From positions 70,303 through 134,302 of the forward strand of contig CAZRTH010000001.1 of NCBI GenBank assembly GCA_964602975.1: DNA of 64,000 nt, given 5' to 3'. Of the stretch, positions 4,396-60,763 are shown piece after piece. The notes below the pieces were generated by a model, which ran no database searches, was not told the origin of the DNA, and was given only the letters and a program-made list of their open reading frames with translations. Every line of letters begins with the position of its first letter. Position 1 is the first letter of the stretch. Origin of the DNA: an uncultured Candidatus Saccharibacteria bacterium. GTDB taxonomy: Bacteria; Patescibacteriota; Minisyncoccia; Phycocordibacterales; JBBTRF01. The position numbers were made by a program, and so were the translations under genes.

Positions 4396-5370
4396 TTAGA
4401 ACACCAACCCTGTTTTCTTCCGCACCTCTTCCATCTTGGCCTCAGCGCGTACACGAGCCTTTTTGCCGCCTTCGGCGAGGATCTTGAGGACACGGCTGCG
4501 ATCTTTCGCCAGTTCGGCTCGGCGTTCACGAAGAGGTGTCACGAAGGCGATGAGGTCCGCCAACAAAGCTTCTTTGAGATCTTTGTACTTCCCTGCCTTC
4601 TCGGTGTAGAGGGCGTCGAGATACGCCTTGTCGCGGAATAGCTCGTGGATAGCGCGGACATTCACCGGCACACCGCCTGAAGAGTCGGTGACGATAGACA
4701 TCACCAGCTTGCGGAGCTCTTCATCGGTCGAAAAGAGCGGGATGTGGTTGCTGTAGCTTTTGCTCATCTTTTGACCGTCGATACCAGGCACGGTTTTGAC
4801 GTCTTCTAGAATAAGCGGCTCGGGTAATTTGAATGTCTCGCCAAAGATGCGGTTGAATTTCTCCGCAGTATCGCGGGCATATTCGACGTGTTGCTTCTGG
4901 TCCTGCCCCACCGGCACCACAGCGGCGTTGGCGATGAGAATATCCGCCGCCATCAGGATCGGGTAGTCAAAAAGACCGACATTGATCTCCTTGTTCTTGG
5001 CCTCCGCGTCCTTGAAAGCATGTGCACGCATCAGATACGGCATGGTGGTGAGGCAGTTGAAGATCCAGCCAAGCTCAGTGACCTGAGGAGTGTCGGACTG
5101 TTTGAAGAGCGTCACCTTTTTTGGATCGATGCCGATGGCCAAATAGTCGAGCACGAGATCGTATGTCGCTTGGGAAAGCTCCGCCGCATTTTGCACAGTG
5201 GTGAGGGCGTGCAGGTCGGCAATGAAAATATGCGCGTCGTGCGTTTCTTGCAGATCGACATACTGCTTCATGGCGCCGAAATAGTTTCCAATATGCGGTC
5301 GGCCGGTGGGCTTCACGCCGGACAATAAAATAGGCCGATCGGCCGGAAGCGATTTCTTGAAGATACTCAT
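4396..5370 (-). CDS. trpS: tryptophan--tRNA ligase
   Basis: 324 aa; class I HIGH motif GRPHIGNYFG near N-terminus, KMSKS present. Confidence 0.9.
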   Translation of the reverse strand: MSIFKKSLPADRPILLSGVKPTGRPHIGNYFGAMKQYVDLQETHDAHIFIADLHALTTVQNAAELSQATYDLVLDYLAIGIDPKKVTLFKQSDTPQVTELGWIFNCLTTMPYLMRAHAFKDAEAKNKEINVGLFDYPILMAADILIANAAVVPVGQDQKQHVEYARDTAEKFNRIFGETFKLPEPLILEDVKTVPGIDGQKMSKSYSNHIPLFSTDEELRKLVMSIVTDSSGGVPVNVRAIHELFRDKAYLDALYTEKAGKYKDLKEALLADLIAFVTPLRERRAELAKDRSRVLKILAEGGKKARVRAEAKMEEVRKKTGLVF

Positions 5371-15122: not shown

Positions 15123-16301
15123 CTACAACCCCTCTTTTTTCAACTCTTCGATCGCCTTTTTGGCGGCGCGAGAAAGGTGCTTCGGCATGTCGACGGAAAT
15201 TTTCACAAAAAGATCTCCTCGGCGATTTTTGCTGCTGCCAACTTGCACGCCGCGACCCTTCACTCGCAACTGTTCACCGTGGTGAATGCCAGCAGGGATA
15301 CTGAGCTGGATCGTGCCGTCCAAAGTGGCAAGCGGTAGCTCACAACCAAGCAACGCATCGGAAAGTTTGATGGACAAAGTGGTATGCAAATCGTCTCCGT
15401 CGCGCTGGAAAAGCGGATGAGGAACGATGTGGATCTTCACATACAGGTCGCCAGCTGAGCCTGCGCCCGAGCCGCTCGAGGCGCCCGAGACAGCCTCGCC
15501 CTTCCCCGCCATTCGGAGCATTTCGCCGTCATTGATACCGGCAGGAATAGTAACCTCCAGCGTTTCTTGCTTTTCGTGCACGCCTGCACCGCGGCACACT
15601 CGACATTTTTCCTTCGGGATCGTGCCCTTTCCGACACAGGTCGGGCAGGTTTGGACCGTGTTGATGTTGCCAAGGAAGGATCGACGAGTCTCCTGCACTT
15701 TTCCTCGACCGTTACAAGTCGAGCACGTGTCGAGCTTGGTTCCCGGTTCGCCTCCGCTCCCTTTGCAATGATCACACTGGGCCGTTCGACTAAAACGGAG
15801 CTCTCGTTTAGTACCGAAAATGGCATCCTTGAATGGAATCTCGATGTCGATGGACATATCACGGCCTTTCTGCTTTCGTCCACGTGATCCGGCGCTGGAG
15901 CCACCTGAACCTCCTGAACCGCCACCAAAAATGTCTCCAAATAGATCGCTGATATCAAATTCTACATTTTGGCCACCGGTTCCACCGCCGCGAGCGAAGC
16001 CGCCAAAGCCTTGTCCACCGAAGCCCTGAGTGAACTGCGAAAAATCGAAGCCGTCAAAGCCGCCAGCTCCGCCGCCATTACCAGAGAAGCCCGGCTCAGC
16101 CGAGCCAAATCGGTCATACTGCGCGCGCTTCGTGTCGTCCGACAACACTGAATACGCCTCGTTCGCCTCTTTGAAACGTGCTTCGTTGCCACCTTTCTTG
16201 TCAGGATGATGCTCGTGCGCGAGCTTTCGGAACGCCTGTTTGATCTCGTCTTTCGTGGCGTTCTTCTCGACCCCGAGTGTTTTGTAGTAGTCTTTACTCA
16301 T
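15123..16301 (-). CDS. dnaJ: molecular chaperone DnaJ
   Basis: J-domain MSKDYYKTLGV...HPDK, G/F-rich linker, four CxxCxGxG zinc-finger repeats; start set at MSKDYY (ORF track extends 16 codons upstream to 16349). Confidence 0.95.
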   Translation of the reverse strand: MSKDYYKTLGVEKNATKDEIKQAFRKLAHEHHPDKKGGNEARFKEANEAYSVLSDDTKRAQYDRFGSAEPGFSGNGGGAGGFDGFDFSQFTQGFGGQGFGGFARGGGTGGQNVEFDISDLFGDIFGGGSGGSGGSSAGSRGRKQKGRDMSIDIEIPFKDAIFGTKRELRFSRTAQCDHCKGSGGEPGTKLDTCSTCNGRGKVQETRRSFLGNINTVQTCPTCVGKGTIPKEKCRVCRGAGVHEKQETLEVTIPAGINDGEMLRMAGKGEAVSGASSGSGAGSAGDLYVKIHIVPHPLFQRDGDDLHTTLSIKLSDALLGCELPLATLDGTIQLSIPAGIHHGEQLRVKGRGVQVGSSKNRRGDLFVKISVDMPKHLSRAAKKAIEELKKEGL

Positions 16302-16402
16302 TTTGTTTTGAAGGTTTTGTTTTTGGAATTTTATCCTCTTTTCCTCCATTCTCCCCGCGACGACTTTCGTAAATTACGCAAGTAGGTCACGGGGAATAGG
16401 AG

Positions 16403-19621: not shown

Positions 19622-20239
19622 TTATTTCTTCACCTCCCCTACCTTCACCTTTGGCGGGCGGACGACGCGATCGCCGAGTTTGTAGCCTTTGTTGATGACT
19701 GCGACGATTTTTCCATCCAACGACTTGCCGTCAGGGCCATTCGCGGCAGCACCGGAAAGCTCCACCATCTCAATAGCCTCCTGCTCGAGTGGGCTGTAGT
19801 CGGCGCCGAGTGGATTAAGCTCAACAAGACCGTTCTTTTGCAAAATACCGAGGATCTGCGACTGAATATGCTCAACGCCCATGCGCCAATTCTTGTCCAC
19901 CTTCTCCCAGGCTCCTTTGTTGGATCGTGCCATGTCGAAACTGTCGAGCACAGGCAGCAAGTCGAGGATGAGATCCTCGTTCGCGTATTTCACCAGCTCC
20001 TTCTGTCGTTCCTCGTCGCGCTTCCGGGCGTTCACCATATCTGCCTTTGTACGCTGCCAGCCGGTGAGATAGTCGAGCTTCTCGGCCTCGCACTTCTTCA
20101 GTTTGTCGCGAAGATCTTTAAGCTTGGCTTGGGCGCCTTTCTCGATCCCCTCTTCATTGGTGTCGACAATATCGTCAGTATTTTTGTCATTCATTGCGCT
20201 GGTCATTATACTTTTCAACCACGCACTTTGCAACGCCAT
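19622..20239 (-). CDS. grpE: nucleotide exchange factor GrpE
   Basis: GrpE signature ...DYLTGWQRTKADMVNARKR...LLPVLDSFDMA...; true start possibly Met16 (20194) because TTGCAA-17-TATAAT lies at 20233-20205 inside the first 15 codons. Confidence 0.9.
   Translation of the reverse strand: MALQSAWLKSIMTSAMNDKNTDDIVDTNEEGIEKGAQAKLKDLRDKLKKCEAEKLDYLTGWQRTKADMVNARKRDEERQKELVKYANEDLILDLLPVLDSFDMARSNKGAWEKVDKNWRMGVEHIQSQILGILQKNGLVELNPLGADYSPLEQEAIEMVELSGAAANGPDGKSLDGKIVAVINKGYKLGDRVVRPPKVKVGEVKK
20205..20233 (-). promoter_or_regulatory. sigma70-type promoter TTGCAA-17-TATAAT, 10 nt upstream of an in-frame ATG of grpE
   Basis: near-consensus hexamers on minus strand; would give a (near) leaderless grpE transcript. 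Confidence 0.45.
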
Positions 20240-20288: not shown

Positions 20289-20939
20289 ATGAAACCCTAT
20301 CATTTAAGCACTCGATTCTATATTATCTTCACCCTGGTGATGCTCGTGCCTGCAGTACTCGTGGCTGAGTATCTTCAGGAGGTCATCTTGGCGCCATTGT
20401 TCGACGTGCTGTTCACCAATCTGATCTTCGACTGGCGACTCATCGAAGCTCCGGTCGCGGCGAGCGTCATCGCCCTTTCTTTTTGGGTGTATGAAGTGTT
20501 TCTGTGGAGATTTCCGCCATTCAAACAACTCCATCCGTGCCCAGACGTAAACGGTCGGTATGAGGGAATTTATATAAGAAACAAGGATCAGGACCCAAAA
20601 AAAGAAAATGACATTGTCTTTGAGATCGAGCACACATTGAGGCACATTTCCGTGGTTTGTTACAGCGAGAAGCGAACCTCACACAGCCTGGTGGCGACCA
20701 TCGGCCAAAATGGGTTCGGTCACTGGTGGGTGTTGATGATCTATCAAAATATGGCGAATGAACACTTTGTCCATCACGGGACGCCGCACACTCATGGCGA
20801 ACGAGGCGTCGCTTTTATCGAGATCAGCAAAAAAGGCAAGGCATTGCACGGCACCTACTTCACCAACCCACAAGACACCGGCGTATATGGAACTTTCCAA
20901 GTGAAATTCAAGGGCGACAAGAAATTCTACGCGCTTTGA
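20289..20939 (+). CDS. hypothetical membrane protein: two N-terminal TM helices plus ~130-aa beta-rich, His-rich C-terminal domain
   Basis: 216 aa; TM1 ~res 10-30 (FYIIFTLVMLVPAVLVAEYL), TM2 ~res 55-76; C-terminal GHWWVLMIYQN...FVHHGTPHTHGERGVAFIEI...GTFQVKFKG. Confidence 0.55.
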   Translation: MKPYHLSTRFYIIFTLVMLVPAVLVAEYLQEVILAPLFDVLFTNLIFDWRLIEAPVAASVIALSFWVYEVFLWRFPPFKQLHPCPDVNGRYEGIYIRNKDQDPKKENDIVFEIEHTLRHISVVCYSEKRTSHSLVATIGQNGFGHWWVLMIYQNMANEHFVHHGTPHTHGERGVAFIEISKKGKALHGTYFTNPQDTGVYGTFQVKFKGDKKFYAL

Positions 20940-26805: not shown

Positions 26806-28050
26806 CTAGCCTTTTTGTTCGATGATCTGGATGCGGTCGACGTCATCTGGGAAGGTAGTTCGCCAAAAAGGACGGACCACTGCCTTGATCGGGGTGACTT
26901 CGCTAAAACCCGCCATGATCCCCTTGAATGAATCGGTTTTTTGGGATACCAGCGCCTCTTTGATCTTTGCAGTGTCGTAGAGCCAAACGAGACTAGCGGT
27001 ACCAGAGACACTGAGCTTGATCGGATCGCGATCAAAGACGCCCACCGACATGTTCTGCGGAACGACTTCGAGACCTTCGACCGTTTTGAGGTCCACTGGT
27101 TTTTCGTCGTATCCATTGAGCGATTTTGTGGCGATCGCTTTGGCAAGCATCTTTCGATCCAACATGAGACCGGTGAGGATCACCTTTTGGGTCAGCACCA
27201 CTGTATCAGTGTCTTTGTTTTGATTCGGCAACTGCTCCACACTAAACAATGTTGCTCTATCGAAAAATGCATACCCCTCGGGTGTCTGCGCTCGAGCGGA
27301 GGCGATGAGGCGTGTTTTGAGGTCAGCGATCATTGTGTCGCGTGCAGTCTTTTCATCAGCCACCTTCACCACTCGTACCACACCTTTGCTGCCGCCGGTC
27401 ATCGCGATTTTCGAGCGTGCATAGATATTTTTGTACTTTTCCGGAGTTGATTTGAAACCTGGGATAGTGAAGTCGGTGAGGCCTATGTTGTATTCCGGAC
27501 CAGCGACGTCAGCGTAAACTGTCACTTCGATACTGCCCGGTACGGTTCCCTTCTTTCCTGGAATAGTGACTGGCTCAGAAATTCGATAGATGAGACCTTC
27601 AGGAGTCTGAAATCGGGTGTTGCGGATGAGTCGCTGGGTGGCGGTGGTGTCGTTGTTGTAGATGACGATCTGTCCGGAGGCCTTCTTTTCCTCCATTCGG
27701 GTGCCTTGAGCAATGACTTCTTTTTGGGATTGGTCGGACAAGGTCACGAGCTGGTATGTAATATCCGTGCCCTTGGCTGTTTTACCGGCGAGCAGCGTAA
27801 TATTGACAGGCGTCTTCTGAGTGAGCGGATCAAGAGTGATCGTGGCTCCGGTAAAGAGCGAGGACACAACGAAAAATAGGACGGCGAGGCAGGCGACTAC
27901 CAGCGTCCAAAGGATACTGCGGCGAATCTTCAGCTGAGGGTCGCTGCCGGCATCACCAGAGCGATCTGATCGACCGCGCATTGAAGCCGGAATGATCCGT
28001 ATACTACGGCGCTCCGAAGGGCGCACATCATTGATAATAGGCCTCGACAT
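26806..28050 (-). CDS. hypothetical bitopic membrane protein (414 aa; Arg-rich cytoplasmic N-terminus, one TM, large extracytoplasmic domain)
   Basis: TM ~res 46-66 (ILWTLVVACLAVLFFVVSSLF); no recognised motifs. Confidence 0.6.
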   Translation of the reverse strand: MSRPIINDVRPSERRSIRIIPASMRGRSDRSGDAGSDPQLKIRRSILWTLVVACLAVLFFVVSSLFTGATITLDPLTQKTPVNITLLAGKTAKGTDITYQLVTLSDQSQKEVIAQGTRMEEKKASGQIVIYNNDTTATQRLIRNTRFQTPEGLIYRISEPVTIPGKKGTVPGSIEVTVYADVAGPEYNIGLTDFTIPGFKSTPEKYKNIYARSKIAMTGGSKGVVRVVKVADEKTARDTMIADLKTRLIASARAQTPEGYAFFDRATLFSVEQLPNQNKDTDTVVLTQKVILTGLMLDRKMLAKAIATKSLNGYDEKPVDLKTVEGLEVVPQNMSVGVFDRDPIKLSVSGTASLVWLYDTAKIKEALVSQKTDSFKGIMAGFSEVTPIKAVVRPFWRTTFPDDVDRIQIIEQKG

Positions 28051-28079: not shown

Positions 28080-29372
28080 CTATTGCTTTAGCTTGTTGAT
28101 AAACAGGACGGTGAGTAGCAAATTTACGGAGTGTACCTCAGGTGCATTCATTTGGTAGTGGGTGTTGAGGAAATTGCAATCGAGTGCCAACACCGAAAAA
28201 GGCGTGCCGTCAGAAGCTCCGTGTCCGAGCGAGTGATCGGAGATGAGTGTCGCAAAAAATGGCTGAAGGCGATCTTCAGCCGCCACCATCACAGTGCCAG
28301 GCACGAAGCATTCTTCAGAAAGGAGGGCGATCGAACCGGACACGGATGCTTGCCAATCTTTTGAAGCTTTTTTGAGTACTGGCTCAACTCGTTTTTTAGT
28401 CTCATCGGAAAGTGAATCAAGGCCGTGCATGCCAAGGACCGAGAGAGCTGTCTCTGGCGAGATCCCGGCTTCTTTTTCTAGCGCCCGTACAAAATGCTGG
28501 CTGCCCATCGGCACCGTGATCGTCTGCATCGCCACACCCTTCTTCACAATAGTGAAATCCGACACCTCGCCGTCCACGTCCACCAGCAAAAAATGCCGTG
28601 GAACCGACGCCACATCTCGAACTACGGAAAAAGTGACCATCGGGAAGGTGTGAAAATTGATAGTGGATCGACGGAAAATAGGCTGAACCACCTCTCGGAT
28701 CTGTGCGAGCAATTCCGAACCGACCACGCTGAAGTAGAGAGCGACTTCGAGCTCCTTCATTTTTTTGCCCTTTGGCCGCGAGGTTTCGTAGCCGTTCAGA
28801 GACAAAGAGACGACGTGACTTTCCACCAATTCCAGCTGCTCATGAAAACGCTCGCCGTATTCGCTGGCAGCAAAAGCATCGGCAAAAGCATTCGCTTCCT
28901 TTTTCACCAATTCATCAAGCGCCTTTTCAGAAAATAGTTCCGGAGTGTCCTTCACCTCACGGACGATCTTTGTCTGCGACAAAAACCACGGCGAAGCGAG
29001 CGTACAGTGGATCTCCCCGACCGCATCACTGCGCAATCCTCCCAGCGGAGTGAAGGTGAGATGTTGCAAACCTTCTTTTTCGAGGCGATCAACCACTTTT
29101 TTCAGCACTGTGATCGCAGCCGCTGCCATGTCCTTCCCAGGCTTGGCAGTACGATGTAGGGGAAATGTTTCTTCGCAAGAAAAGAGGATTTTCGGAACGC
29201 GGCATGTCGCGCCGGCTGTTGCCGTATTAGCCAATGTCCCCAATGCGTCGGACGCAGGCTTGGTCTCAGAACAATCGCGAATAGCGAGACCGCCAGACAC
29301 TCGCTCACCTTCAATGTGAAGAAGGATGACGGGTACTTTATCTGAATGCATGCCAAACGAGAGCCGGCTCAT
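28080..29372 (-). CDS. actin-fold (ASKHA) ATPase-like protein, FtsA/PilM-like (tentative)
   Basis: 430 aa; phosphate-1-like VILLHIEGERVSGGLAI near N-terminus and phosphate-2-like LLVDVDGEVSDFTIVKKG mid-protein; hydrophobic/basic C-terminal tail LLLTVLFINKLKQ. Confidence 0.5.
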   Translation of the reverse strand: MSRLSFGMHSDKVPVILLHIEGERVSGGLAIRDCSETKPASDALGTLANTATAGATCRVPKILFSCEETFPLHRTAKPGKDMAAAAITVLKKVVDRLEKEGLQHLTFTPLGGLRSDAVGEIHCTLASPWFLSQTKIVREVKDTPELFSEKALDELVKKEANAFADAFAASEYGERFHEQLELVESHVVSLSLNGYETSRPKGKKMKELEVALYFSVVGSELLAQIREVVQPIFRRSTINFHTFPMVTFSVVRDVASVPRHFLLVDVDGEVSDFTIVKKGVAMQTITVPMGSQHFVRALEKEAGISPETALSVLGMHGLDSLSDETKKRVEPVLKKASKDWQASVSGSIALLSEECFVPGTVMVAAEDRLQPFFATLISDHSLGHGASDGTPFSVLALDCNFLNTHYQMNAPEVHSVNLLLTVLFINKLKQ

Positions 29373-35742: not shown

Positions 35743-36579
35743 TTAGCACAACGTCGCCAACTCCTCCTTCACTTCGCTGATCTTGCCGGTCGAAAGTCCC
35801 ATTGAGCTCAATATGGAGGTGTCAGCACTGAGCGATTTACACAACACAATACCCCTCTTGAACAATTCCTGGCGATGACTGTCGGTGAGAGAGTTGATGC
35901 AGGTGAGCGGATGAAGACCGCTTTCTTCGATCCATTGTTCGAGATTGCCTTTTTCTGGGTAGTTCCAACCGATCATTTTCAGGCCGGCACAGCGACCGTA
36001 GTCGATGGCGGTTTGGGTGAATTTTGTGTTGGTGATCAAACAGCCCTCGCCGAAGGCGCGCTTCTTGCCGCCGTAGTTGAACAACTGCGAACGCAAGTCA
36101 TCGAAGCGCGCCTTCACGTACAAGGCCACTTTCAGATCGGTCTTGAAGCCCAGTTCATTGTGAAATTTCAGCTCACAAAGAACAAGCTGAGCATCGTTAT
36201 ATGCCACCACATCCACTTCATGCGGGACGCAGGCGCCCTGCACTGTTTGATCGGTGAGCGCTTGATACCCTTTGGCACGAAACACCTCGGCGATGAACTT
36301 CTCAAAAGGAAAGCCGGTGGGTCCGAGACCGATGAGGGCGCGGCGAAGAGAATACTTCGCCGCCACCGGCTTTTGATGTTCGCGGAGCAGATTGAAAGCG
36401 TGTCGATAGATATCGCTGGTCGTGATACCAGGCACTATTTCTCGCTCGACGTGCTCGACGATCCTCGCGATCACGGCATCGCTAGTACCGACTCGCTTGA
36501 GCGAATACGCCAATTTCTCGGGACGGAAAGACTCGCTGGTGCCATCCGCCTTCAGAATATTGATCTGCTGAGAAGACAT
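35743..36579 (-). CDS. ATP-cone domain fused to Mrr-like (PD-D/ExK) restriction-endonuclease domain
   Basis: 278 aa; N-terminal ATP-cone-like ~90 aa (ILKADGTSESFRPEKLAYSL...), C-terminal ...GFPFEKFIAEVFRAKGY...VDVVAY..LCELKFH. Confidence 0.6.
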   Translation of the reverse strand: MSSQQINILKADGTSESFRPEKLAYSLKRVGTSDAVIARIVEHVEREIVPGITTSDIYRHAFNLLREHQKPVAAKYSLRRALIGLGPTGFPFEKFIAEVFRAKGYQALTDQTVQGACVPHEVDVVAYNDAQLVLCELKFHNELGFKTDLKVALYVKARFDDLRSQLFNYGGKKRAFGEGCLITNTKFTQTAIDYGRCAGLKMIGWNYPEKGNLEQWIEESGLHPLTCINSLTDSHRQELFKRGIVLCKSLSADTSILSSMGLSTGKISEVKEELATLC

Positions 36580-39296: not shown

Positions 39297-40577
39297 TTAA
39301 ATTGGAAGATTGCTTGGCGCTTCGGAACGTCGAGATTCGATACGATCCAAAGAAGGCGTGGTAGCGGTCGCTCCAGGAAGGTGGAAGATGGTGGCGAGCG
39401 ATTCGGCAGTCATGATAAAAGGCTTTGATTTCCAAAATCGGTATGGATAGGTGAAGAACGAGCGGTGCTTGTAGGCATCGAGAAACATTTTCTCGTAGTG
39501 AGTGCGACGCATTCGGGCGAAGTCCTGCCATGGGTAGTCGAAATCAGTAAAGAAACCGAGCCCAAGGTTGTTGATGTAATTGTAATTGCCGCCGTACTGA
39601 CGAAATGCGCCGATCAAACCCGGCACGCGCACCGGCAGCTTGTTCGCCTCTTTAGTGGCAATATAGAGACCGCGAATGCACGTATCAAACGGCAGCTGAT
39701 GCATATTTTTTTCGATGGCCGCAATGGCATCGGTCTGACCCTTAGTGTAATCCGGGAAACTCCTGGTCTTCTTGCCGTCTTTGTCCTTCACCTCCGGAGT
39801 CGCGGCGTCTTTAATATTTTTGATCTCACCTTCGCAGGCCTTGATCCAATCATCCTTCTTCTTCAAATGTCCTTCAGGTAAACCGAGCTTCTTGTGTGCC
39901 TGGATGAGGATCTGGAACCATGCCTGCTCCCCATTTTGAAGCGAGCCCATCCATTCAAGCAGCGAATTTATCGGATCTATCTTAAACTCCTCTTTTTCAG
40001 AAGCCTTGTCCAAGCCGAAATCCACATAACTCTTAATTTGATACATGTCTTGCGGCTTGCCCGTCTTCTTGTCCTTTCTCGAGTGCACGAAATATGTTCC
40101 CCACATCGGCATCTCTTCCGGATGAGTGAAGACCTGGTCGCTATAATCCGGAACCTCCTCGATCACGATGCCGGGATAATACGCGTACAGCTGTGCCTCG
40201 ATGAGATCCTTGTACTTCGTGTGCGTCCAGATATAGAAATGTACTTTGCCACCAATAGAGGCCATTTCCAACGAGAACCAATTTCGTATCTTGCCGTTGA
40301 CATAGGTGTCGATCCAACTTGCCGAGCCTTTTTGCCAAATAGATGCCAGAAAAATCTCCATCGCCAGCGGCGACTTGGTGACTTCCTTCGGCAATCGAAT
40401 CTCCAGTAGAGTGCCACCTTGTTTTTCCACAAATTCGCTACGGACGTAGTAGAACCAAGTGTGTGCGAATACGAATCCGCAAAAGAACGGCAGCCAGATC
40501 GGATAGAGGGAAAGAAAAGTAGAGACGCTTTGATAGATCAGGTTGCTAAAGTCGGCTGCGAGAACAGATTCCATCAC
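39297..40577 (-). CDS. hypothetical membrane protein (426 aa; 2 N-terminal TM helices, large soluble domain)
   Basis: no recognised motifs; 65 nt downstream of the sigma-r4/HARE-HTH gene on same strand. Confidence 0.55.
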   Translation of the reverse strand: MMESVLAADFSNLIYQSVSTFLSLYPIWLPFFCGFVFAHTWFYYVRSEFVEKQGGTLLEIRLPKEVTKSPLAMEIFLASIWQKGSASWIDTYVNGKIRNWFSLEMASIGGKVHFYIWTHTKYKDLIEAQLYAYYPGIVIEEVPDYSDQVFTHPEEMPMWGTYFVHSRKDKKTGKPQDMYQIKSYVDFGLDKASEKEEFKIDPINSLLEWMGSLQNGEQAWFQILIQAHKKLGLPEGHLKKKDDWIKACEGEIKNIKDAATPEVKDKDGKKTRSFPDYTKGQTDAIAAIEKNMHQLPFDTCIRGLYIATKEANKLPVRVPGLIGAFRQYGGNYNYINNLGLGFFTDFDYPWQDFARMRRTHYEKMFLDAYKHRSFFTYPYRFWKSKPFIMTAESLATIFHLPGATATTPSLDRIESRRSEAPSNLPI

Positions 40578-40642: not shown

Positions 40643-41752
40643 TTACGCCTTCACTGCCGGAGAGAAGCTCACGACTACCGAATACTTCCCCTCCTTGTCT
40701 TTCTTGAAATGCTTCGGATTTTGAAGGTTGACCATGATAGTGTTCTCTTTCACATATCGCTCTTTGAGTACCTTCTCGACGATCTCGCTCTTGTTGAGCG
40801 GACCACTCTTTTCGATGATCTTTTTGATCACATCCTTCACAACGCCACTCATATAGCCCCATTCAGCGAGTGCGTAGAGACCGCGACCGACAAGCACGAA
40901 GCGTGAGTCCTTGATGAGCTCGTTGTGGCAAGTAGCGACATGAGCCTTGATGTTGAAGATCTTTTCGATGTTCTTTGCGACCTGAGTGAAGTGGATCGGC
41001 GAACCGTGCTTTCGGATAACGAGAAACGCGTAGTCTCGCATGCCCTTCGTCTTGATATTTGGAGAATCAGCCAAGCCCCACTCACCGAGCGGATTTTGCG
41101 CGATCTTCTTTGAAAGCTTAAGCCATCGGCGAACTACTTCTTCATTCTTGTATTTCTCAGACACATCCTTGAGATGCTCGAGGAACTTGTTGACCATCTC
41201 TGATTCAGAGAGCAGGTCGTCATTCGAGATATTCTTGTACAGCTTGTGGAGAGAGCCTTCTACCTGCTTTGCGAGCTCTTCATTTACATGCCATCGGTGA
41301 TTGAAATGTTCGTCTTCTTTCTGGCGCTTGAAGATGTCACCGAGAACAAGAAGAAAATTGAGATGGTTTTGGAGAGACGCGTCTTTTGAAATATGGGAAA
41401 GGAGGTCATCTTCTACCACAACCCCACCGAGAGAGTGGAGCACTTGCTCGAGGTCGGCAAAAGCGGTCTTTTCTTTTCCATACACATCAGACTTGCGGAT
41501 ATTGGCGATAGCGTAATTTTCGATCTGTCGGACTCGCTCTCGGGTGATGCCGTATTTCTTGCCGATCGCTTCGAGCGTAAGGCGCTTTGCTTCCTTGCCA
41601 AGACCATAACGAGCAACGATCACTTCCTGAGCGCGGTCAGGTAGCACGGCGATCAGCCGCTTGGTCACTTGTTTTGGTTTGAAGCTAATAGTGCTCATAT
41701 TTTTCTTTATTGGTGATTGAACCAAATTATCATTGATAGTCATAATAGTCAA
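40643..41752 (-). CDS. DNA-binding protein with N-terminal sigma-70 region-4-like HTH and C-terminal HARE-HTH-like domain
   Basis: 369 aa; res ~30-90 LIAVLPDRAQEVIVARYGLGKEAKRLTLEAIGKKYGITRERVRQIENYAIANIRK (sigma70 r4); res ~225-290 ...FLVIRKHGSPIHFTQVAKNIEK...SRFVLVGRGLYALAEWGY (HARE-HTH). Confidence 0.6.
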   Translation of the reverse strand: MTIMTINDNLVQSPIKKNMSTISFKPKQVTKRLIAVLPDRAQEVIVARYGLGKEAKRLTLEAIGKKYGITRERVRQIENYAIANIRKSDVYGKEKTAFADLEQVLHSLGGVVVEDDLLSHISKDASLQNHLNFLLVLGDIFKRQKEDEHFNHRWHVNEELAKQVEGSLHKLYKNISNDDLLSESEMVNKFLEHLKDVSEKYKNEEVVRRWLKLSKKIAQNPLGEWGLADSPNIKTKGMRDYAFLVIRKHGSPIHFTQVAKNIEKIFNIKAHVATCHNELIKDSRFVLVGRGLYALAEWGYMSGVVKDVIKKIIEKSGPLNKSEIVEKVLKERYVKENTIMVNLQNPKHFKKDKEGKYSVVVSFSPAVKA

Positions 41753-47163: not shown

Positions 47164-47192
47164 TTTATATCAGGATTTTGTCAAAATACCAA
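47164..47192 (-). promoter_or_regulatory. promoter TTGGTA-17-TATAAA ending 6 nt before ychF ATG (leaderless arrangement)
   Basis: minus strand: TTGGTAttttgacaaaatcctgaTATAAAtagccgATG. Confidence 0.4.
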
Positions 47193-47213
47193 GGAAACGT
47201 TCGCTTAATAATA

Positions 47214-47242
47214 TTGACATTTTCGCACAAACGGTGTATAGT
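47214..47242 (+). promoter_or_regulatory. sigma70 promoter TTGACA-17-TATAGT
   Basis: ~50 nt upstream of ATG 47292, which is preceded by GAAAGG. Confidence 0.55.
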
Positions 47243-47291
47243 AGTGTCTGATTTTCGCCGCTTGACAACACTTTATACGAAAGGCTTCCCC

Positions 47292-48521
47292 ATGCTCACA
47301 CTCGCACTTAGTCACACCTTGCAGCAGAGTCAGTCGCTCAGCATCGAACTCGGTTTGTCGCAGAGCCTCGCCCAAACAGTCGGCCTGACTCGCCCACCAG
47401 GCTCACCCGGAAATCCGGAAGAGATCCTCGCACGAATCCTAGCAAACATCGTTGCGTCGATCACAAATGCCCGCATACAAGAAGCGGTCAGCGGATTGAC
47501 GAGCGATCCAAGTTTCGTCAAAGGTCTGCTCTTGCACAAAGAGGAATTGGCTGTCTTGAGAGAGGGTCGGATCGAACAGTTCGCGGCAGATCATCTCTAC
47601 ACAAATAGCACGCGTGACGGAAAGTTCGTCCACGCTGTCGGATCTGATGGCAAACCCGTGCTCGACCCGCCCCAGACGACCGGCATCCTCTTCAGAAGAG
47701 CACTACTCGAACCGGAAAATTTCGGCCAAGAAGTGGAGCTTCTCGCTGAACGATTGCGACAGATCGCCTCTCGCGTTCATTCGGTGGCTGAACTCAAGGA
47801 AATGACGGCAGCGAAGAACATTGCTGCTCAGGTCCGGCCACTCTTCGAAAACTTCTGTGCGATCCTAGAGCTCGTCTTCGCCAAGAAGACTGAAGACATG
47901 ATGACCGTGGCTCAATTTCTACGAGATGCCGTCATCTTAGAGAAGCTTGACCTCATCATGTCTGAACGGCTCCTGAAACGCTTCCTCAAGCGCTTTCGAC
48001 GAGTCGGTCCGCGAGCGGTTGCCCGAGATTTCGAGGAATCAATGCTCAACACCGTGGCTGAGTATACACTCATCAGTATGGGTGTGATCTCTCCGGACAT
48101 CTTTGCCCTGCAAAGGAGTGACACTGACTCGGAAGCATACGACGGTGCGTGCACAGAGTTGAGCAAGGTCGGAATCGACCTAAGCCAGGTGCTCGCCCAC
48201 TACCAGATCCAACCTGCAGGTAGGATCTTCTGGCACCGCTACTCCACCACCAAGGTGAAGCCGAGTGATCGTTCCGAGCAAATCGTCCGCGATTTCATCA
48301 TTCGGACGGTCCGCCAAGACCGCCAGGCAGTCTTGGCGGCAGTCAACCACACCGAACTCTTCGCAGGCTTCAAGGCCGCGAAAGCCAAGTATGGGGTTGA
48401 CGAAGAATTCGATGACGAAATCATCGGACAACTCACCGATCAACTCGGCAGTGACAGTTTCCAGCTCCAATACCTCGCGTTGCTGAGAAGGTGGTATCCT
48501 CAGCTCGAGAAACTCCTGTGA
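47292..48521 (+). CDS. hypothetical protein (~410 aa from MLTLALSH; ORF track starts at TTG 47178)
   Basis: ATG with GAAAGG 7 nt upstream and strong promoter; no recognised motifs. Confidence 0.5.
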   Translation: MLTLALSHTLQQSQSLSIELGLSQSLAQTVGLTRPPGSPGNPEEILARILANIVASITNARIQEAVSGLTSDPSFVKGLLLHKEELAVLREGRIEQFAADHLYTNSTRDGKFVHAVGSDGKPVLDPPQTTGILFRRALLEPENFGQEVELLAERLRQIASRVHSVAELKEMTAAKNIAAQVRPLFENFCAILELVFAKKTEDMMTVAQFLRDAVILEKLDLIMSERLLKRFLKRFRRVGPRAVARDFEESMLNTVAEYTLISMGVISPDIFALQRSDTDSEAYDGACTELSKVGIDLSQVLAHYQIQPAGRIFWHRYSTTKVKPSDRSEQIVRDFIIRTVRQDRQAVLAAVNHTELFAGFKAAKAKYGVDEEFDDEIIGQLTDQLGSDSFQLQYLALLRRWYPQLEKLL

Positions 48522-55491: not shown

Positions 55492-55974
55492 TTACAACTT
55501 TTTCACCTCCCTCAACTCCTGCTTCAAGATCTTCGCGGAATATTCGGCATTGGAGGGTCGGTCGAAAAGAAATTTGCCTCGGAACTTTTGTCCGGCGAGG
55601 AAAAACGGAAACCAGTGGATATCGTCAGACCACATTTGTTCAAAAGGGATATGGTCGACATGGAACCATTGCGGCTTCATTTCTTCGGTCTCGATCGGTT
55701 CGCCTCTGAATTCTGTGACGCGAAAAATATGGACCTCGAGTACGGCCGGATCGCTCTCAAACGAAAACTCGAGTATCCCCTGCTTCTCCATTTTCACCGC
55801 CTCAATTCCAACTTCCTCTTTTAGCTCGCGCGTCGCGGCTTGCTCAAGTGTCTCTCCCTTCTCAATTTTTCCACCAAAACCATTCCATCGTCCCACGCCA
55901 AAACGCCGCTTTTTCATGCCAAGAAGCACTTTTGGATGCTGATAGATCATGCAAAGCGTGAGCGGGATCTTCAT
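55492..55974 (-). CDS. Nudix hydrolase (MutT-like)
   Basis: 160 aa; Nudix box GGKIEKGETLEQAATRELKEEVG. Confidence 0.85.
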   Translation of the reverse strand: MKIPLTLCMIYQHPKVLLGMKKRRFGVGRWNGFGGKIEKGETLEQAATRELKEEVGIEAVKMEKQGILEFSFESDPAVLEVHIFRVTEFRGEPIETEEMKPQWFHVDHIPFEQMWSDDIHWFPFFLAGQKFRGKFLFDRPSNAEYSAKILKQELREVKKL

Positions 55975-55998
55975 GTCTTTTATTCTATCAGAGCGACG

Positions 55999-56021
55999 AA
56001 AAATCCGCTCGTGCGGATTTT
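55999..56021 (-). terminator. rho-independent terminator after tRNA-Ala (AAAATCCGC-acga-GCGGATTTTT)
   Basis: 9-bp stem then U-run on minus strand, directly 3' of the tRNA. Confidence 0.6.
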
Positions 56022-56025
56022 GTTG

Positions 56026-56098
56026 TGGACCCTACAGGACTCGAACCTGCCACCCCCTCATTGCAAATGAGGTGCTCTACCAGATGAGCTAAGGGCCC
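56026..56098 (-). tRNA. tRNA-Ala (anticodon UGC)
   Basis: hand-folded cloverleaf: GGGCCCT/AGGGTCC acceptor with G3:U70 Ala identity pair, D-loop ATCTGGTA, anticodon loop TTTGCAA, T-loop TTCGAGT, discriminator A; CCA not encoded. Confidence 0.88.
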
Positions 56099-56218
56099 GT
56101 CTTTCCGACCGTCGCATCATACCAAAAAGAACCTAAAAAAACAACGGGGTAGACACTAAAGTAATATTCACAGAAATCATGTACAAAAAGCTAATAAAGT
56201 TGTATGGTGGAGACATAA

Positions 56219-57187
56219 ATGAAATCAATTAATAAAGTTTTTTTCAGCATTATTAGTTTATCAATATTTGCACTTCTGCTTTCTCTTACAAACACGGCAG
56301 ACGCTTATGTCTCTGTTAAAGGTTATTATAAAAGTAACGGTACTTACGTTTCTCCACACGTTCGAAGTAACCCAAATGGACTAAAGTCTGATAACTACAG
56401 TTACACTCCGAGTCAAGGCGCATACAATAAGACATACGGAACAAGAGGTGCGGAATGGGATACCCCGACCTATATAACAGATCCAAGTTACTACCAAGGA
56501 AAGTCTTTATACGAGTCTGGAAATAGTAATTCTGGAACCTACTATCAATACCCGACGACTCCGACTTGCCCGATAAATTCGTACTACGATGGTGTATCTT
56601 CTTGTAAGTGTAATTATGGTTATATTGTAAGTGGAGGTAGTTGTGTTAATGCTAATAATTATTGCTCGAGTCAGCTTGGGGTAATGTCCCAATACAACAG
56701 TTTATCCAATAAGTGTGAGTGTATGAGTGGCTACGAGCAAAGTGGTTCAACTTGTGTTTATAAGATTCGAGACTACTCAAATTCCTCTGGATATTCGAGT
56801 ATGCCCTCTTACAACTGCCCATTAAATTCGCACACATCACCAACTGAGCCAACGAAGTGTGATTGTGATTCCGGATATCAAGTTAATTCAAGCAAGACGG
56901 CCTGCGTTCTCCTAAACAATAATGTGAATAATCAAGCTTGCATCAACTCATATGGCGCCCATAGTAATTGGGATGGTACAAAAACGCCTACAGGTTTAAT
57001 AAATTGCGTCTGTCAGGCAGGGTATACTTGGAATAATTCAAAGAGTGCCTGCGTTGCAATCATACCTCAACCACAATATCAAAATGACGAACTCATTGGA
57101 AAAAATTATTACTTAAATAATCGTACCTGTGTAGGTCTTTCTGATAATCAATACTCATACTGTATTAGCTACGCATACAACCACTAA
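56219..57187 (+). CDS. secreted cysteine-repeat protein (322 aa) encoded in AT-rich DNA
   Basis: signal peptide MKSINKVFFSIISLSIFALLLSLTNTADA; four C-x-C-x2-G-Y-x(4-7)-C-V modules; canonical SD GGTGGAG 6 nt upstream of ATG, unlike neighbouring genes; N/S/Y-rich. Confidence 0.6.
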   Translation: MKSINKVFFSIISLSIFALLLSLTNTADAYVSVKGYYKSNGTYVSPHVRSNPNGLKSDNYSYTPSQGAYNKTYGTRGAEWDTPTYITDPSYYQGKSLYESGNSNSGTYYQYPTTPTCPINSYYDGVSSCKCNYGYIVSGGSCVNANNYCSSQLGVMSQYNSLSNKCECMSGYEQSGSTCVYKIRDYSNSSGYSSMPSYNCPLNSHTSPTEPTKCDCDSGYQVNSSKTACVLLNNNVNNQACINSYGAHSNWDGTKTPTGLINCVCQAGYTWNNSKSACVAIIPQPQYQNDELIGKNYYLNNRTCVGLSDNQYSYCISYAYNH

Positions 57188-57191
57188 CCCA

Positions 57192-57223
57192 CTCCCCCTC
57201 GCCAATTCTACCAAACGTTCAAC
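57192..57223. repeat. 32-bp direct repeat copy A: fragment duplicating the 3' end of ddl
   Basis: CTCCCCCTCGCCAATTCTACCAAACGTTCAAC vs 58389-58420 CTCCCCCTCGCCAATTCCACCAAATGCTCAAC (29/32). Confidence 0.8.
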
Positions 57224-57491
57224 TGCAATAAAATCCGAAAGCGAATAATACTTCGTTCCAAGCGAACAATCTACCTTGCGTGCAATACTCTGGATCATTA
57301 TGATTTTAGCGGAGTAAAATTGCCTAGGAAAATCTCCTCCTTATCTTCTCTTCTGTCGCTTGAAAAACTCAACCTGCCTCAAACGCTTCACTGCAGCCTC
57401 CCGACTTTTATACGGTCCGCCTAGATTTTTTCCCGTCTTTGATAAAACAAGATACCCATTTTTGCGTTTTCTGATCATGTGCTTGATCTAT

Positions 57492-57896
57492 TTATTTTCT
57501 GCGTCGCGCTCCCTGCGCCTTGCGAATATTCCGCTTTCGAGCCCGCTTCTGAGCTCTCGTTGGCTTCTCGCTCTCGGGAACATTTCTCCGTGGCCTAGCT
57601 GCAAATACATCGCCCTTTCTGTGTACGATCGGACCTCGGACCTGTTTCAATACCGTCTTGGCCTTGGGATCATCGATCACCAATTTCCCCCGAGTATCAA
57701 CATGTGCTTTCTTTTTTTCCACGAGCCAAGTGACCGTATCCCAGCTACCGCTCCTACGCTTCCCCGCAATACGCTCGAGCCCGTCGCGCTCTCCGACATC
57801 TTGCGTCCTAAAAGTCACGAATTCGCTCTTCGGCCTGATCTCGATCCGATAGAATCGCCCTTTGCCACCGGTACCCGGTTTCTTTCTTGTTGCCAT
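57492..57896 (-). CDS. hypothetical small basic protein (134 aa), co-oriented 5 nt downstream of hsp20
   Basis: K/R-rich termini, central GSWDTVTWLVEKKKAHVDTRGKLVIDD; no known motif. Confidence 0.5.
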   Translation of the reverse strand: MATRKKPGTGGKGRFYRIEIRPKSEFVTFRTQDVGERDGLERIAGKRRSGSWDTVTWLVEKKKAHVDTRGKLVIDDPKAKTVLKQVRGPIVHRKGDVFAARPRRNVPESEKPTRAQKRARKRNIRKAQGARRRK

Positions 57897-57901
57897 AGGT
57901 A

Positions 57902-58306
57902 TTATTTTTTAGTTTTAACCTTACCTCTTTTCTCACCTTCGACCTTCGGGAGAGTGATAGTGAGCACGCCATCTTTGCAAGTCGCCTTCACCTGGTCTTC
58001 TTTGACACGATCCGGTAGTGTGAATTCCCGTCGAAATTCGCCGAAGAATCGCTCATATCGATACGGCCTCGTGCTTTTGTCGGTCTCCACTTCTCGCTCG
58101 GACTTGCCGCTGATCGTCATCCAATTGTCCTGAACATCAATATTGATATCTTCAGGGTTGATGCCCGGCACATTGGCTACAACTTTTACTTCCGTATCGG
58201 TTTCGCTCACGTCGACTCGCGGAACATCGTCTTCAAATTCATCCAAAAAGATCTCCCGCTCTGGTTTGACGATTGCTCTGATGCTTTTTTTCTTTTCTTT
58301 TTTCAT
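57902..58306 (-). CDS. Hsp20/alpha-crystallin family small heat-shock protein
   Basis: 134 aa; alpha-crystallin domain ...FRREFTLPDRVKEDQVKATCKDGVLTITLPK... Confidence 0.85.
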   Translation of the reverse strand: MKKEKKKSIRAIVKPEREIFLDEFEDDVPRVDVSETDTEVKVVANVPGINPEDINIDVQDNWMTISGKSEREVETDKSTRPYRYERFFGEFRREFTLPDRVKEDQVKATCKDGVLTITLPKVEGEKRGKVKTKK

Positions 58307-58329
58307 GTTGTTTTTTGATTAGTGAAATA

Positions 58330-58353
58330 TAAAAAATGAGGATACATATCCTC
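58330..58353 (-). terminator. rho-independent terminator after ddl (GAGGAT-atgt-ATCCTC then U-run)
   Basis: 16-bp palindrome GAGGATACATATCCTC followed on minus strand by ATTTTTTATATTT. Confidence 0.5.
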
Positions 58354-58384
58354 TGCTTTAGACGATTTGAATTGTAGATACTTA

Positions 58385-59416
58385 CTACCTCCCCCTCGCC
58401 AATTCCACCAAATGCTCAACAAGCTCGGTCAAACCGGAACCCACCGCCCGCATTGCCTTTGGGAACAGTGAATGTTCAGTGAGGCCAGGCAAAGTGTTCA
58501 CCTCCAAGAAATACACTCCGCGGCGCGGATGCACGATAAAATCCGATCGAGAATAGTGCTTCAATCCGAGCGAGCGATGCACCTCGCGCGCCATACGCTG
58601 GATCTCGGCGCTTTCAGTCGGGGTAAAATTACCTGGGCAAATTTCTTCACTCGCACCACCATATTTCGCTTCATAATCAAAAAGTGGCGAGCCGGCTTGT
58701 TTGCGGATCTCCACCGGTGGCAATGCGTAGTGTTTCTCCCCGCGAAAATGGTCAACCACTCCGCACGTCGCCTCTTTGCCTGCAATATATTCCTCGATCA
58801 GCACTGTATCGCCATGCTCGAAAGCCGAATGAATCGCCTTCTCCAATTCCTTCAGAGTACCGACGACAGAGACACCGATCGACGAACCGGCACTCGCCGG
58901 CTTCACCACTGCCGGATGAGGGAAACTCCTAAACACTTCGGCAGCTTTTTTTGCAACATTCTTCACCTCTTCTTTTCGCAAGACCAGATGCACCGCCGTC
59001 TTTATCTTCCCCGCGCCACTCGATCCACCACCTTGCGCTGCATGATGTGCCAAGTGCTTTTTAGTGAGCACTTTGTTCATCGCGACAGCCGAAGCCAGCG
59101 CGCCAGAGCCGGTGTACGCCGCTTTGTACGCATCCAAAAGAGTCTGGATCTTGCCATCCTCACCAAAACTGCCGTGAAGCGCGTTGAAGAGAACATCAAC
59201 ATGCTTCATGATCTGCTCCGGTTTTTTCTCCACGCCGTCAAAATGCCATTTGCCGTCACGCGTGATGAGAACATCGTGCACGCGATATTTAGAAGTCGGC
59301 AGATGTTTGATCACTGTGCCACCTGTTTGGAGCGAAACAGGATATTCAGAAGAAGTGCCGCCGCGCACCACGCCGACACGAATCTTTGAAGCCGTTTTGT
59401 GCGAGCCTGCCGTCAT
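58385..59416 (-). CDS. ddl: D-alanine--D-alanine ligase
   Basis: 343 aa; ATP-grasp fold, C-terminal ...SRSDFIVHPRRGVYFLEVNTLPGLTEHSLFP... Confidence 0.9.
   Translation of the reverse strand: MTAGSHKTASKIRVGVVRGGTSSEYPVSLQTGGTVIKHLPTSKYRVHDVLITRDGKWHFDGVEKKPEQIMKHVDVLFNALHGSFGEDGKIQTLLDAYKAAYTGSGALASAVAMNKVLTKKHLAHHAAQGGGSSGAGKIKTAVHLVLRKEEVKNVAKKAAEVFRSFPHPAVVKPASAGSSIGVSVVGTLKELEKAIHSAFEHGDTVLIEEYIAGKEATCGVVDHFRGEKHYALPPVEIRKQAGSPLFDYEAKYGGASEEICPGNFTPTESAEIQRMAREVHRSLGLKHYSRSDFIVHPRRGVYFLEVNTLPGLTEHSLFPKAMRAVGSGLTELVEHLVELARGR
58389..58420. repeat. 32-bp direct repeat copy B (authentic 3' end of ddl)
   Basis: see copy A at 57192-57223. Confidence 0.8.
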
Positions 59417-59452
59417 GTAAATAGTATATCACGGGCGTTTCGCGCCCGTCGC

Positions 59453-60763
59453 CTATCGCAATCGCCCGCGTAGCGTCCGATGATATTTGATCGCGAAACG
59501 GTGGGCCTCGCTATTGAGCAGCAGGATCTCTTTCCCAAATTTCCTTGCCAATACTTGATGCTGCGGTGCGGCCAAGATCCGTTCCGGTTTGTGCTTGTCA
59601 TTTTTCACCACCGCCACAACGGCAATATCGAAACCTGCCGCTTTCAATGTTTTTTCAGCAGCGCGTTTCTGTGCAGTCGAACCATCCACAACAATGAGAT
59701 TCGGAAAAGTCCATTCGGAATGCGTAAGTCTGCGCGACAGGATCTCTTGGAGCGAAGCGATGTCATTCACATCCGTCGAACGGCCGACCTCGGCACGCTT
59801 CACTTTGAACATACGATATTCGGACTTTCGGAGCTGCCGATCTTCGAGCACCGTCATCACGCCGACCGTATTTTTGCCGGACAGGTGCGCCACGTCGTAT
59901 GCCTCGATGCGAAACAACGCTTCGGGCGATTTCGGGCCACCATTCACAGTGACGCCCGTATCTTTTGCCATCGATACATCATCCTGTTCCTTTATCAGTC
60001 CAATATCCTGAATGTGATTGAGTGCAAAGATCGTCCTTTTCACTTCATTGGCCTCCTCAAAACGCCGCTCTTTGGCAAGCGCTCGCATGTCTTTTTCGAG
60101 CTCGCGAATGAGAATACCTTTTTTGCCTTCGAGAAACAGTTTCAATCGCGCGATCGTCTTTTTGTATTCGGTCGAGGATACTTCACCAGTGCACACTCCC
60201 GGACAGAGGCCGAGCTGTCGATTGAAACACGGCCGACAGGCTGAACCATCGCACGGTGTGCATCGATCGCGGAACGGAAAGATCTTCCGCACGATCTTCA
60301 ATCCGTCACGCAAGATGCTCCCATTCGAATACGGACCAAGCACGGCTTGGAAACGCGTCGTAGAACTTTCGACATCTTTGTTGCGCATAATGAGCACGCG
60401 CGGAAATGCCTCGTCGGTGATGACAATGCAATTGAAGCTTTTATCGGATTTTTCTTTCGTGTTGTACCGAGGTTGATGTTGCTTGATGAGATTGGCTTCC
60501 AAAATGATCGCTTCGAGTACGGAGTCGGTCTGGACGAAATCAACCTTCTCGGCGTGAAAGATCATGTCGACCACCAGCGGCCCTCGGGTGTGGATAATGT
60601 CATCGTTGAAATAGCTACGGACGCGGTCGGAGAGCGAAGTGGCACGGCCAATATAGAGGATTTCTTGGCCATTTTCCTTGTTTTTTGCTGTTTTTTGGCC
60701 AATGAAAAAATAGACGCCTGGGGCGTCGGGCAAGATCTTCCAGGGCTCTCCTTGACTCGTCAT
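59453..60763 (-). CDS. uvrC: excinuclease ABC subunit C, short form lacking C-terminal (HhH)2 domain
   Basis: 436 aa; GIY-YIG (GVYFFIGQ...ILYIGRATSLSDRVRSYF), Cys cluster, UVR domain, RNase H-like endonuclease domain (EAYDVAHL...). Confidence 0.85.
   Translation of the reverse strand: MTSQGEPWKILPDAPGVYFFIGQKTAKNKENGQEILYIGRATSLSDRVRSYFNDDIIHTRGPLVVDMIFHAEKVDFVQTDSVLEAIILEANLIKQHQPRYNTKEKSDKSFNCIVITDEAFPRVLIMRNKDVESSTTRFQAVLGPYSNGSILRDGLKIVRKIFPFRDRCTPCDGSACRPCFNRQLGLCPGVCTGEVSSTEYKKTIARLKLFLEGKKGILIRELEKDMRALAKERRFEEANEVKRTIFALNHIQDIGLIKEQDDVSMAKDTGVTVNGGPKSPEALFRIEAYDVAHLSGKNTVGVMTVLEDRQLRKSEYRMFKVKRAEVGRSTDVNDIASLQEILSRRLTHSEWTFPNLIVVDGSTAQKRAAEKTLKAAGFDIAVVAVVKNDKHKPERILAAPQHQVLARKFGKEILLLNSEAHRFAIKYHRTLRGRLR

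Follow-up and report, generated by a model that had tools for sequence, protein, structure and literature searches.

Campbell-type integration leaves the segment of homology as a direct duplication on either side of the incoming DNA (A-insert-A′), and the gene at the integration site stays intact only if the incoming fragment includes its 3′ end. In the streptococcal literature on integrative and conjugative elements (ICEs), cis-mobilizable elements (CIMEs) are small cargoes that carry no integrase and lie between direct repeats that stem from a housekeeping-gene 3′ end; these repeats are short, well-conserved attachment (att) sites that are still recognised by related ICEs. In Escherichia coli, the e14 element inserted in icd has left behind a 163-bp pseudo-icd′ (PMC6379469), and for type VI secretion system (T6SS) effector-immunity, Rhs and contact-dependent inhibition (CDI) loci the displacement of 3′ ends has been proposed to occur via homology-facilitated illegitimate recombination (PMC5361080). 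Here, we analyse a 64,000-nt stretch of DNA (hereafter the window, in whose positions all coordinates are given) from the genome of a Paceibacteria-like member of the Patescibacteria, in which ddl, the gene for D-alanine--D-alanine ligase, is followed by a small heat-shock gene (hsp20), two further genes (p134 and s45) and a decayed copy of the ddl 3′ end. We postulate that this arrangement is probably an old, lineage-specific insertion scar at ddl, left by a homology-assisted or an illegitimate duplicative event, and an ordinary scar rather than an active mobile-element site.

The original prediction for this locus was built on a 32-bp direct repeat, in which the 3′ end of ddl (58389-58420) recurs at 57192-57223. 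When recomputed, the two copies agree at 29 of 32 positions, and the former is indeed the end of a full-length ddl, with both ligase domains (PF07478 and PF01820) recognised in its product (Table 1). The match is non-random, as none was obtained in 100 dinucleotide-preserving shuffles, nor is the 32-mer a dispersed repeat, with just two copies at up to three mismatches in the 64 kb of the window. The 32-bp match thus stands, but not as the whole of the repeat. Repeat finding and blastn delimit a terminal block of 41 nt with 83% identity (57183-57223 against 58380-58420) and an inner block of 113 nt with 73% identity (57228-57340 against 58536-58649; blastn E-value 9e-18), which matches ddl of a close relative (L001) at 75%. 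The two blocks are collinear with the live ddl and lie at offsets of 1197 and 1308 bp, the difference of 111 bp being equivalent to 37 ddl codons that are gone from the distal copy, where a bridge of 4 nt (57224-57227) joins the blocks. In translation, EEIFLGNFTP appears in one frame of the distal copy and PRQFYSAKIIMIQSIARKVDCSLGTKYYSLSDFIAVERLVELARGS in another; joined over a frameshift, the two correspond to Ddl residues ~257-298 and 333-343. For the inner block, tblastn finds 18 of 38 residues identical in the Ddl range 261-298, with EEIFLGNFTP recovered in a different frame. The distal stop codon is mutated. The stretch from 57183 to 57340 is a ddl 3′ pseudogene representing the final ~89 codons of the gene, in which 158 bases are left of a duplicated segment of ~273 bp (58380-58652), and the 32-mer, which lies at the 3′ end of that segment, is the best-preserved stretch of a decaying ddl tail.

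The place at which ddl formerly ended can be recognised from related genomes. The ddl downstream regions were compared with those of the four closest genomes found (L163, L166, L001 and L167, whose Ddl proteins are 81-87% identical), all of which keep the uvrA..uvrC-ddl order and have none of hsp20, p134 and s45 at ddl. In L163-L165 (Ddl 87% identical), ddl is followed by a convergent 319-aa gene that ends 1 bp from the ddl end; L166 (85%) and L167/L168 (81%) carry a different convergent gene in this place, and in L001 (84%) a tRNA-Ala comes directly after ddl. The convergent gene of the window encodes a 322-aa protein that shares 81% identity with its 319-aa counterpart in L163, and it occupies the same position as in L163-L165; the L163 ddl/319-aa junction aligns base for base with the junction between the remnant and the 322-aa gene (…TAGTGGTTGTATGCGTAGC…TATTGATTATCAGAAAGACC…). 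Hence, the remnant marks the original ddl 3′ end, and the whole stretch from there to the stop codon of live ddl has been inserted, so that the cassette appears to be a lineage-specific insertion. More broadly, uvrC-ddl is syntenic in 33 loci of the reference genomes, and in 13 Paceibacteria loci ddl is followed at a distance of 20-130 bp by a same-strand tRNA-Ala(UGC) (0.3-2.4 kb in others). In the window this tRNA is found 2.3 kb after ddl, and the spacer next to it is identical to that of L001 at 25/25 positions. The ddl-tRNA gap is variable, containing different inserted genes, and the tRNA is inverted in some loci. Neither hsp20 nor p134 occurs within the ~6 kb compared around ddl in any of 80 reference ddl loci, and related cargo was met at none of the ~130 other ddl loci examined overall.

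The architecture is therefore A-cargo-A′, with A continuous with the native ddl body and A′ continuous with the native downstream neighbour. As in other displaced 3′ ends, the upstream gene is intact, a 3′ fragment in the same orientation follows the insert, and relatives lack the insert. At the left, the junction is ~10 nt or less from the stop codon of ddl, and the native flank ceases to be recognisable ~5 nt past that codon. At the other side, the stop codon of s45 (57341-57343) directly abuts the start of the remnant at 57340, with 0 bp in between, and s45 runs three residues past the C-terminal end of its homologues, which suggests that the breakpoint touched the end of its coding sequence or lay just inside it. 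The Logan contigs L171 (window 57896-60362) and L172 (window 56054-57894), both from run SRR8931233, are 100% identical to the window and between them span the ddl-hsp20 as well as the s45-remnant-322-aa junction; this second assembler argues against a misassembly, though the reads may be the same. The contigs meet at 57895, in the 5-nt gap between hsp20 and p134, their ends being one base apart, which coverage or a population variant might explain.

The distal copy shows the features of a pseudogene: a frameshift, the 111-bp deletion, loss of the stop and a neutral substitution pattern. In a three-way alignment of the remnant, live ddl and L001 ddl, the changes assigned to the remnant branch number ~10, 11.5 and 10 for the first, second and third codon position (~53 sites each), as against 2, 5 and 20 differences between live ddl and L001 ddl. 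The changes private to the remnant comprise 20 GC>AT, 3 AT>GC and 7 composition-neutral ones, whereas the live branches are balanced (9/8 and 3/7), and over the shared columns its GC content is 0.42 vs 0.51-0.55 for the live genes. In 22 of 162 columns it departs from a base that is common to the five live genes, and its identity amounts to 72% with the live copy, 73.5% with L001 and 65-66% with the other three. Judged by the flat codon-position spectrum and the GC>AT bias, the remnant looks like a product of long neutral decay, and not like a selected att site or a fragment newly acquired from a functional foreign ddl. The terminal block differs from the live copy less than the inner block does (3/32 vs 30/113 mismatches), a marginal difference (Fisher p = 0.055); among the live genes, conservation of the two blocks is 0.85 vs 0.82. 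The repeat is without present function. A role of the remnant as a terminator or structured RNA was considered and rejected, given fold z-scores of +0.64 and +0.28 on the two strands and no terminator-like site; a search for Rfam families in 55800-58700 returned the tRNA alone. An attempt to date or place the remnant by phylogeny was likewise dropped, as live ddl genes are near-equidistant (third-position differences 0.42-0.50) and 162 sites are comparable; on these distances the five genomes form a near-star radiation, which precludes finer dating.

The live 3′ end of ddl, in turn, looks native. Codons 255-343 encode a part with 90-93% protein identity to the four relatives and third-position differences of 0.43-0.49, and the corresponding values for the remaining Ddl are 84-88% and 0.45-0.50. 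The N and C parts are thus about equally similar to the relatives and no mosaic signal is present, so the live end did not come in with the cargo from a distant donor; on this comparison such a donor is ruled out, whereas one from the same or a sister population may have supplied it. The hairpin region of the spacer behind the live gene folds at -10.1 kcal/mol (z = -0.9), which is not significant.

Between the two ddl copies there are three minus-strand genes, and not, as originally predicted, only hsp20 and a gene for a 134-aa protein; s45 is the third. The hsp20 product has the alpha-crystallin domain of the HSP20/alpha-crystallin family. Its best homologue is 77% identical, and its closest homologues are 165-174 aa long (the best ~170). 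The window protein is without ~36 residues of the N-terminal region (including ...W-x-E-P-F...), the extreme N-terminus MKKEKKK being kept. The family of p134 comprises 617 homologues at 55-78% identity, with 25 invariant columns in 41 sequences, and has no match in Pfam, NCBIfam or PHROG. An AlphaFold2 model of p134 has a mean pLDDT of 70 and no Foldseek match in the PDB (best E-value 0.25), and the exact sequence of the window p134, looked up in public assemblies, returned no record. The family includes long (~168 aa) and short (~134 aa) forms, the long one bearing a repeated NIKKAQ motif at both ends; the window p134 is of the short form, and hsp20 is likewise shortened. The s45 product (MIRKRKNGYLVLSKTGKNLGGPYKSREAAVKRLRQVEFFKRQKRR) has homologues of ~48 aa (MIRKLKSGKYRLYSRK...REVQYFKR), which adjoin p134 on the same strand in L134, L150, L151, L159, L140 and L132 (E-values 1e-27 to 1e-32); a hidden Markov model was built from the window s45 and five homologues. 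Pfam and NCBIfam gave no match for s45, and PHROG only a weak one (phrog_3684, E-value 0.006). On the evidence of these homologues, s45 is a real gene. The three genes are tightly spaced and probably form one operon. A further upstream ddl fragment at ~57390-57413, where KSGGCSEAF resembles KYGGASEEI of Ddl, was rejected, since it has no support at the nucleotide level and the region is s45 coding sequence.

A collection of 5.8 billion proteins, including those of the relatives' metagenome-assembled genomes, was queried with Ddl, p134 and hsp20. The Ddl query retrieved the protein of the window itself and a graded series of relatives. For p134 and hsp20 the collection yielded no homologue above 78% identity, whereas the Ddl orthologues reach 81-87%. 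Orthologous cassettes hence seem to be absent from the close relatives, and this favours acquisition over internal relocation. The best homologues of hsp20 (77%) and p134 (78%) lie on apparently the same 2,503-bp Joint Genome Institute (JGI) contig (sample 3300071358), in the order hsp20 (170 aa), p134 (168 aa) and a 39-aa open reading frame (ORF), with a truncated 178-aa gene upstream of hsp20; in L081, p134 likewise comes directly after hsp20. Along with the six loci in which s45 adjoins p134, these two cases indicate that the cassette travels or persists as a unit. Among 65 loci with enough upstream sequence, only two have hsp20 directly upstream of p134. In other genomes p134 is found after msrA-msrB (L170), between a purM-like gene and an ornithine carbamoyltransferase (OTCase) gene (L169), and 1.6 kb after ddl, past the tRNA-Ala (L089). 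Its position after hsp20 (L081 and the JGI contig) and after msrA-msrB (L170) suggests a stress-related role. In 82 p134 loci, L173 and L081, no ddl fragment stands beside the cassette, which sits at unrelated loci. Searches for the p134 family in phage, plasmid and viral-contig collections gave zero matches.

Table 1. Features of the ddl locus in the order in which they follow ddl (window coordinates; all protein lengths in amino acids, aa).
Feature	Coordinates	Strand	Remarks
ddl (D-alanine--D-alanine ligase), full-length, 343 aa	58385-59416	-	PF07478 (Dala_Dala_lig_C) 1.8e-47, residues 141-338; PF01820 (Dala_Dala_lig_N) 2e-23
Proximal, functional copy of the duplicated segment	58380-58652	-	ddl codons ~257-343, stop and ~5 nt; bounds are the limits of similarity to the remnant
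ddl-hsp20 spacer, 78 bp	58307-58384	-	terminator-like hairpin at 58338-58353 (GAGGATATGTATCCTC, then T-run)
hsp20, small heat-shock protein, 134 aa, first cassette gene	57902-58306	-	PF00011 1.4e-24, residues 33-131
p134, very basic 134-aa protein, second cassette gene	57492-57896	-	starts 5 nt past the hsp20 stop
s45, basic 45-aa protein, third cassette gene	57341-57478	-	ORF; starts 13 nt past the p134 stop
Remnant, inner block	57228-57340	-	Ddl codons ~257-297; 1-nt deletion/frameshift near 57310; directly after the s45 stop
Remnant, terminal block	57183-57223	-	codons 333-343, mutated stop and native downstream flank; holds the 32-mer
322-aa Cys-rich protein, convergent neighbour of ddl	56219-57187	+	stop abuts the former ddl stop; N-terminal hydrophobic stretch
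tRNA-Ala(UGC) and conserved upstream spacer, ancestral downstream anchor of ddl	56025-56145 (tRNA 56025-56098)	-	ARAGORN, Rfam

Given this, the history of the locus was probably as follows. In the ancestor, uvrC-ddl would have been followed by the 322-aa gene, convergent with ddl and ending head-to-head with it, and then by tRNA-Ala. A stress cassette of ~1.04 kb (hsp20, p134 and s45) would have entered, with the last ~273 bp of ddl becoming duplicated on both sides. The upstream copy would have stayed in frame with the ddl body and provided the working gene end, and the downstream copy, left at the original site against the 322-aa gene, would have lost its function and decayed neutrally through AT-biased substitutions, a frameshift, the 111-bp deletion and loss of the stop. 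The likeliest mechanism would be a recombination in which the ddl 3′ end served as the homology anchor. The simplest route would be single-crossover (Campbell-type) integration of a circular DNA in which the cassette adjoined a ddl 3′ fragment derived from the same population or a closely related sister one; a homology-facilitated or illegitimate duplicative event might have led to the same outcome. The A-insert-A′ order is the one known from Campbell-type integration, which we infer here from the architecture alone. An anchored mechanism we infer by analogy with the displaced 3′ ends of T6SS/Rhs loci (PMC5361080), and site-specific recombination between attP and attB appears less likely than this homology-anchored route. 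In the T6SS, Rhs and CDI loci, as proposed for the window, the incoming DNA is anchored by homology to a conserved upstream gene and the old 3′ region survives downstream as an "orphan" (PMC5361080); they differ in that the incoming piece carries a different 3′ end and diversifies a toxin, whereas in the window the retained 3′ end is native-like, the gene encodes a core cell-wall enzyme and the event was apparently a one-off.

Some observations do not sit easily with the proposed scar and count against it. The circular intermediate is hypothetical, and the 80 ddl loci, the 82 p134 loci, L173 and L081 include neither a donor nor an intermediate in which hsp20 adjoins a ddl fragment. The derived sites that the remnant shares (2 vs 1 vs 1) are too few to place it as a sister of the live copy or as foreign, and the better preservation of its terminal 32 nt (p ~0.05) lacks an explanation. 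The survey for recombinases spans only the 64 kb of the window, where four ORFs of 414-447 aa (26806-28050, 28080-29372, 39297-40577 and 47178-48521) have no Pfam match at E <= 0.001 and may include recombinases of an unrecognised type. Finally, a second, independent ddl fragment occurs in L028, a distant member of the Paceibacteria, and its similarity stops at the end codons of the window inner block (…GATTTTATT; …GATTTTAT).

The main rival of the insertion scar, which we consider the weaker alternative and on balance unlikely, is a site-specific integrative element, now decayed, that was directed at the 3′ part of ddl and either belonged to the e14/icd type or resembled a CIME. With a surrogate ddl 3′ end brought along by such an element, the gene would have stayed intact and the native end would have been displaced to attR, and the integrase and the rest would later have been deleted, leaving the stress cassette alone. 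The shape of the locus agrees with this, since in icd, too, the housekeeping gene is intact and is followed by the insert of e14 or phage 21 and, at its far side, by a displaced 3′ duplicate in the same orientation (PMC6379469). The absence of the cassette from the relatives, the ddl remnant of L028 that ends at the same codons, and the differences in the ddl-tRNA-Ala gap among genomes also fit. However, e14 encodes an integrase, is bounded by defined attL/attR sites and is capable of excision, whereas Pfam searches of the islet and of 37 ORFs across the window detected no integrase, resolvase, transposase or recombinase domain, as had been claimed from the start; the window has instead a ~273-bp duplication with a decayed distal copy and a 1-kb non-phage insert. 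The locus likewise shares with CIMEs the small, integrase-free cargo between direct repeats of a gene 3′ end, but its repeat is a decayed pseudogene, and a related ICE or integrase was found at ddl in none of the genomes examined. Moreover, the 0 bp between the s45 stop and ddl-derived sequence leave no room for an attP arm, and it is the 3′-terminal block of the duplication that is best kept, whereas a crossover core would be expected at the 5′ edge (57340), which abuts s45. The live ddl 3′ end bears no foreign signal, no related element or cargo occupies ddl in the 80 reference loci, the four closest genomes or the ~130 loci overall, and p134 has no match in the collections of phages, plasmids and viral contigs. 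For an integrative element, the integrase and both att arms would have to have been lost completely. From the original prediction, the insertion at the ddl 3′ end and its alternative wording as a duplicative rearrangement or recombination footprint are retained; the assignment of the 32-mer as an attL/attR core is not, as it is the neutrally decayed tail of a much longer duplication.

Quite unlikely, in our view, is a purely internal rearrangement, i.e., a tandem duplication of the ddl 3′ end by slippage or template switching, with the cassette copied or moved within the genome and no transfer involved. Template-switch repair is known to generate duplications that contain filler DNA, hsp20 and p134 resemble the surrounding genome in GC content (49-56%), and the live ddl 3′ end is native-like, all of which this explanation would accommodate. 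Against it, the cassette genes occur only once in the window, their closest homologues (77-78% for hsp20 and p134) fall below the Ddl orthologues (81-87%), and more steps are needed than for a single insertion.

Very unlikely, we think, is that the 3′ part of ddl near the ...SRSDFI... codons is a recurrent, sequence-preferred insertion point in Paceibacteria, with hsp20-p134-s45 as a small mobile stress cassette and the remnants as footprints; the recombination system would then be an unrecognised one that either is integrase-free or provides its integrase in trans. The L028 case that bears on it consists of a 49-nt ddl fragment (4893-4941), 86% identical to the ddl of the same genome and located 243 nt after that gene, preceded by a truncated histidine-phosphatase C-terminus on the opposite strand (L028 4650-4941). 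The end codons shared with the window hint at some site preference. A sensitive scan of all loci revealed no further ddl remnants. That the repeat is merely a chance similarity or an assembly artefact is effectively refuted: the sequence is a metagenome assembly and both Logan contigs break inside the islet, but neither the empty shuffles and the inner-block E-value, nor the recovery of both junctions by a second assembler, nor a 73% identical, frameshifted and AT-shifted remnant, which misassembly of a single-copy gene cannot yield, can be reconciled with it.

Several other genes of the window are worth recording. The 322-aa neighbour of ddl is rich in Asn, Ser and Tyr, has cEGF-like repeats and a GC content of ~39-41% vs ~52% around it, and is, by its predicted features, probably secreted; its N-terminus has a weak PHROG match (phrog_29674, 1.8e-6). 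A 47-aa ORF at 57155-57298 (minus strand), treated as a gene by a public gene call (L172), is almost certainly no gene and represents the remnant frame running into the antisense of the 322-aa gene. Further away, a 216-aa protein (20289-20939, plus strand) with a Cap15-type cyclic-dinucleotide receptor domain (PF18153, 2.8e-12) adjoins grpE (19622-20239), and could, on the basis of this domain, be an effector resembling those of cyclic-oligonucleotide-based antiphage signalling systems (CBASS) in a reduced genome; dnaJ lies at 15123-16349. One ORF of 1,973 aa occupies 9083-15004 (minus strand). Two minus-strand genes encode unusual domain combinations: a 278-aa protein with an ATP-cone fused to an Mrr-like nuclease domain (35743-36579), and a 369-aa protein with sigma-70 region 4 and a HARE-HTH domain (40643-41752).

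We herein describe a known kind of scar, the displaced 3′ end of a gene, in a poorly studied phylum, and not a new kind of mobile element. For annotation, the region 57183-57340 should be labelled as a ddl pseudogene fragment, the 47-aa ORF dropped and s45 added. The islet represents a clean, datable gene gain in a reduced-genome lineage of Patescibacteria, with the native junction still visible, and the scar illustrates how a housekeeping gene can survive when DNA is inserted into its 3′ end. With the cassette, the organism plausibly gains a small heat-shock chaperone and two uncharacterised basic proteins for its stress response, and the linkage of hsp20 with these two conserved proteins, p134 (>600 homologues) and s45, makes both of them candidates for a stress function.

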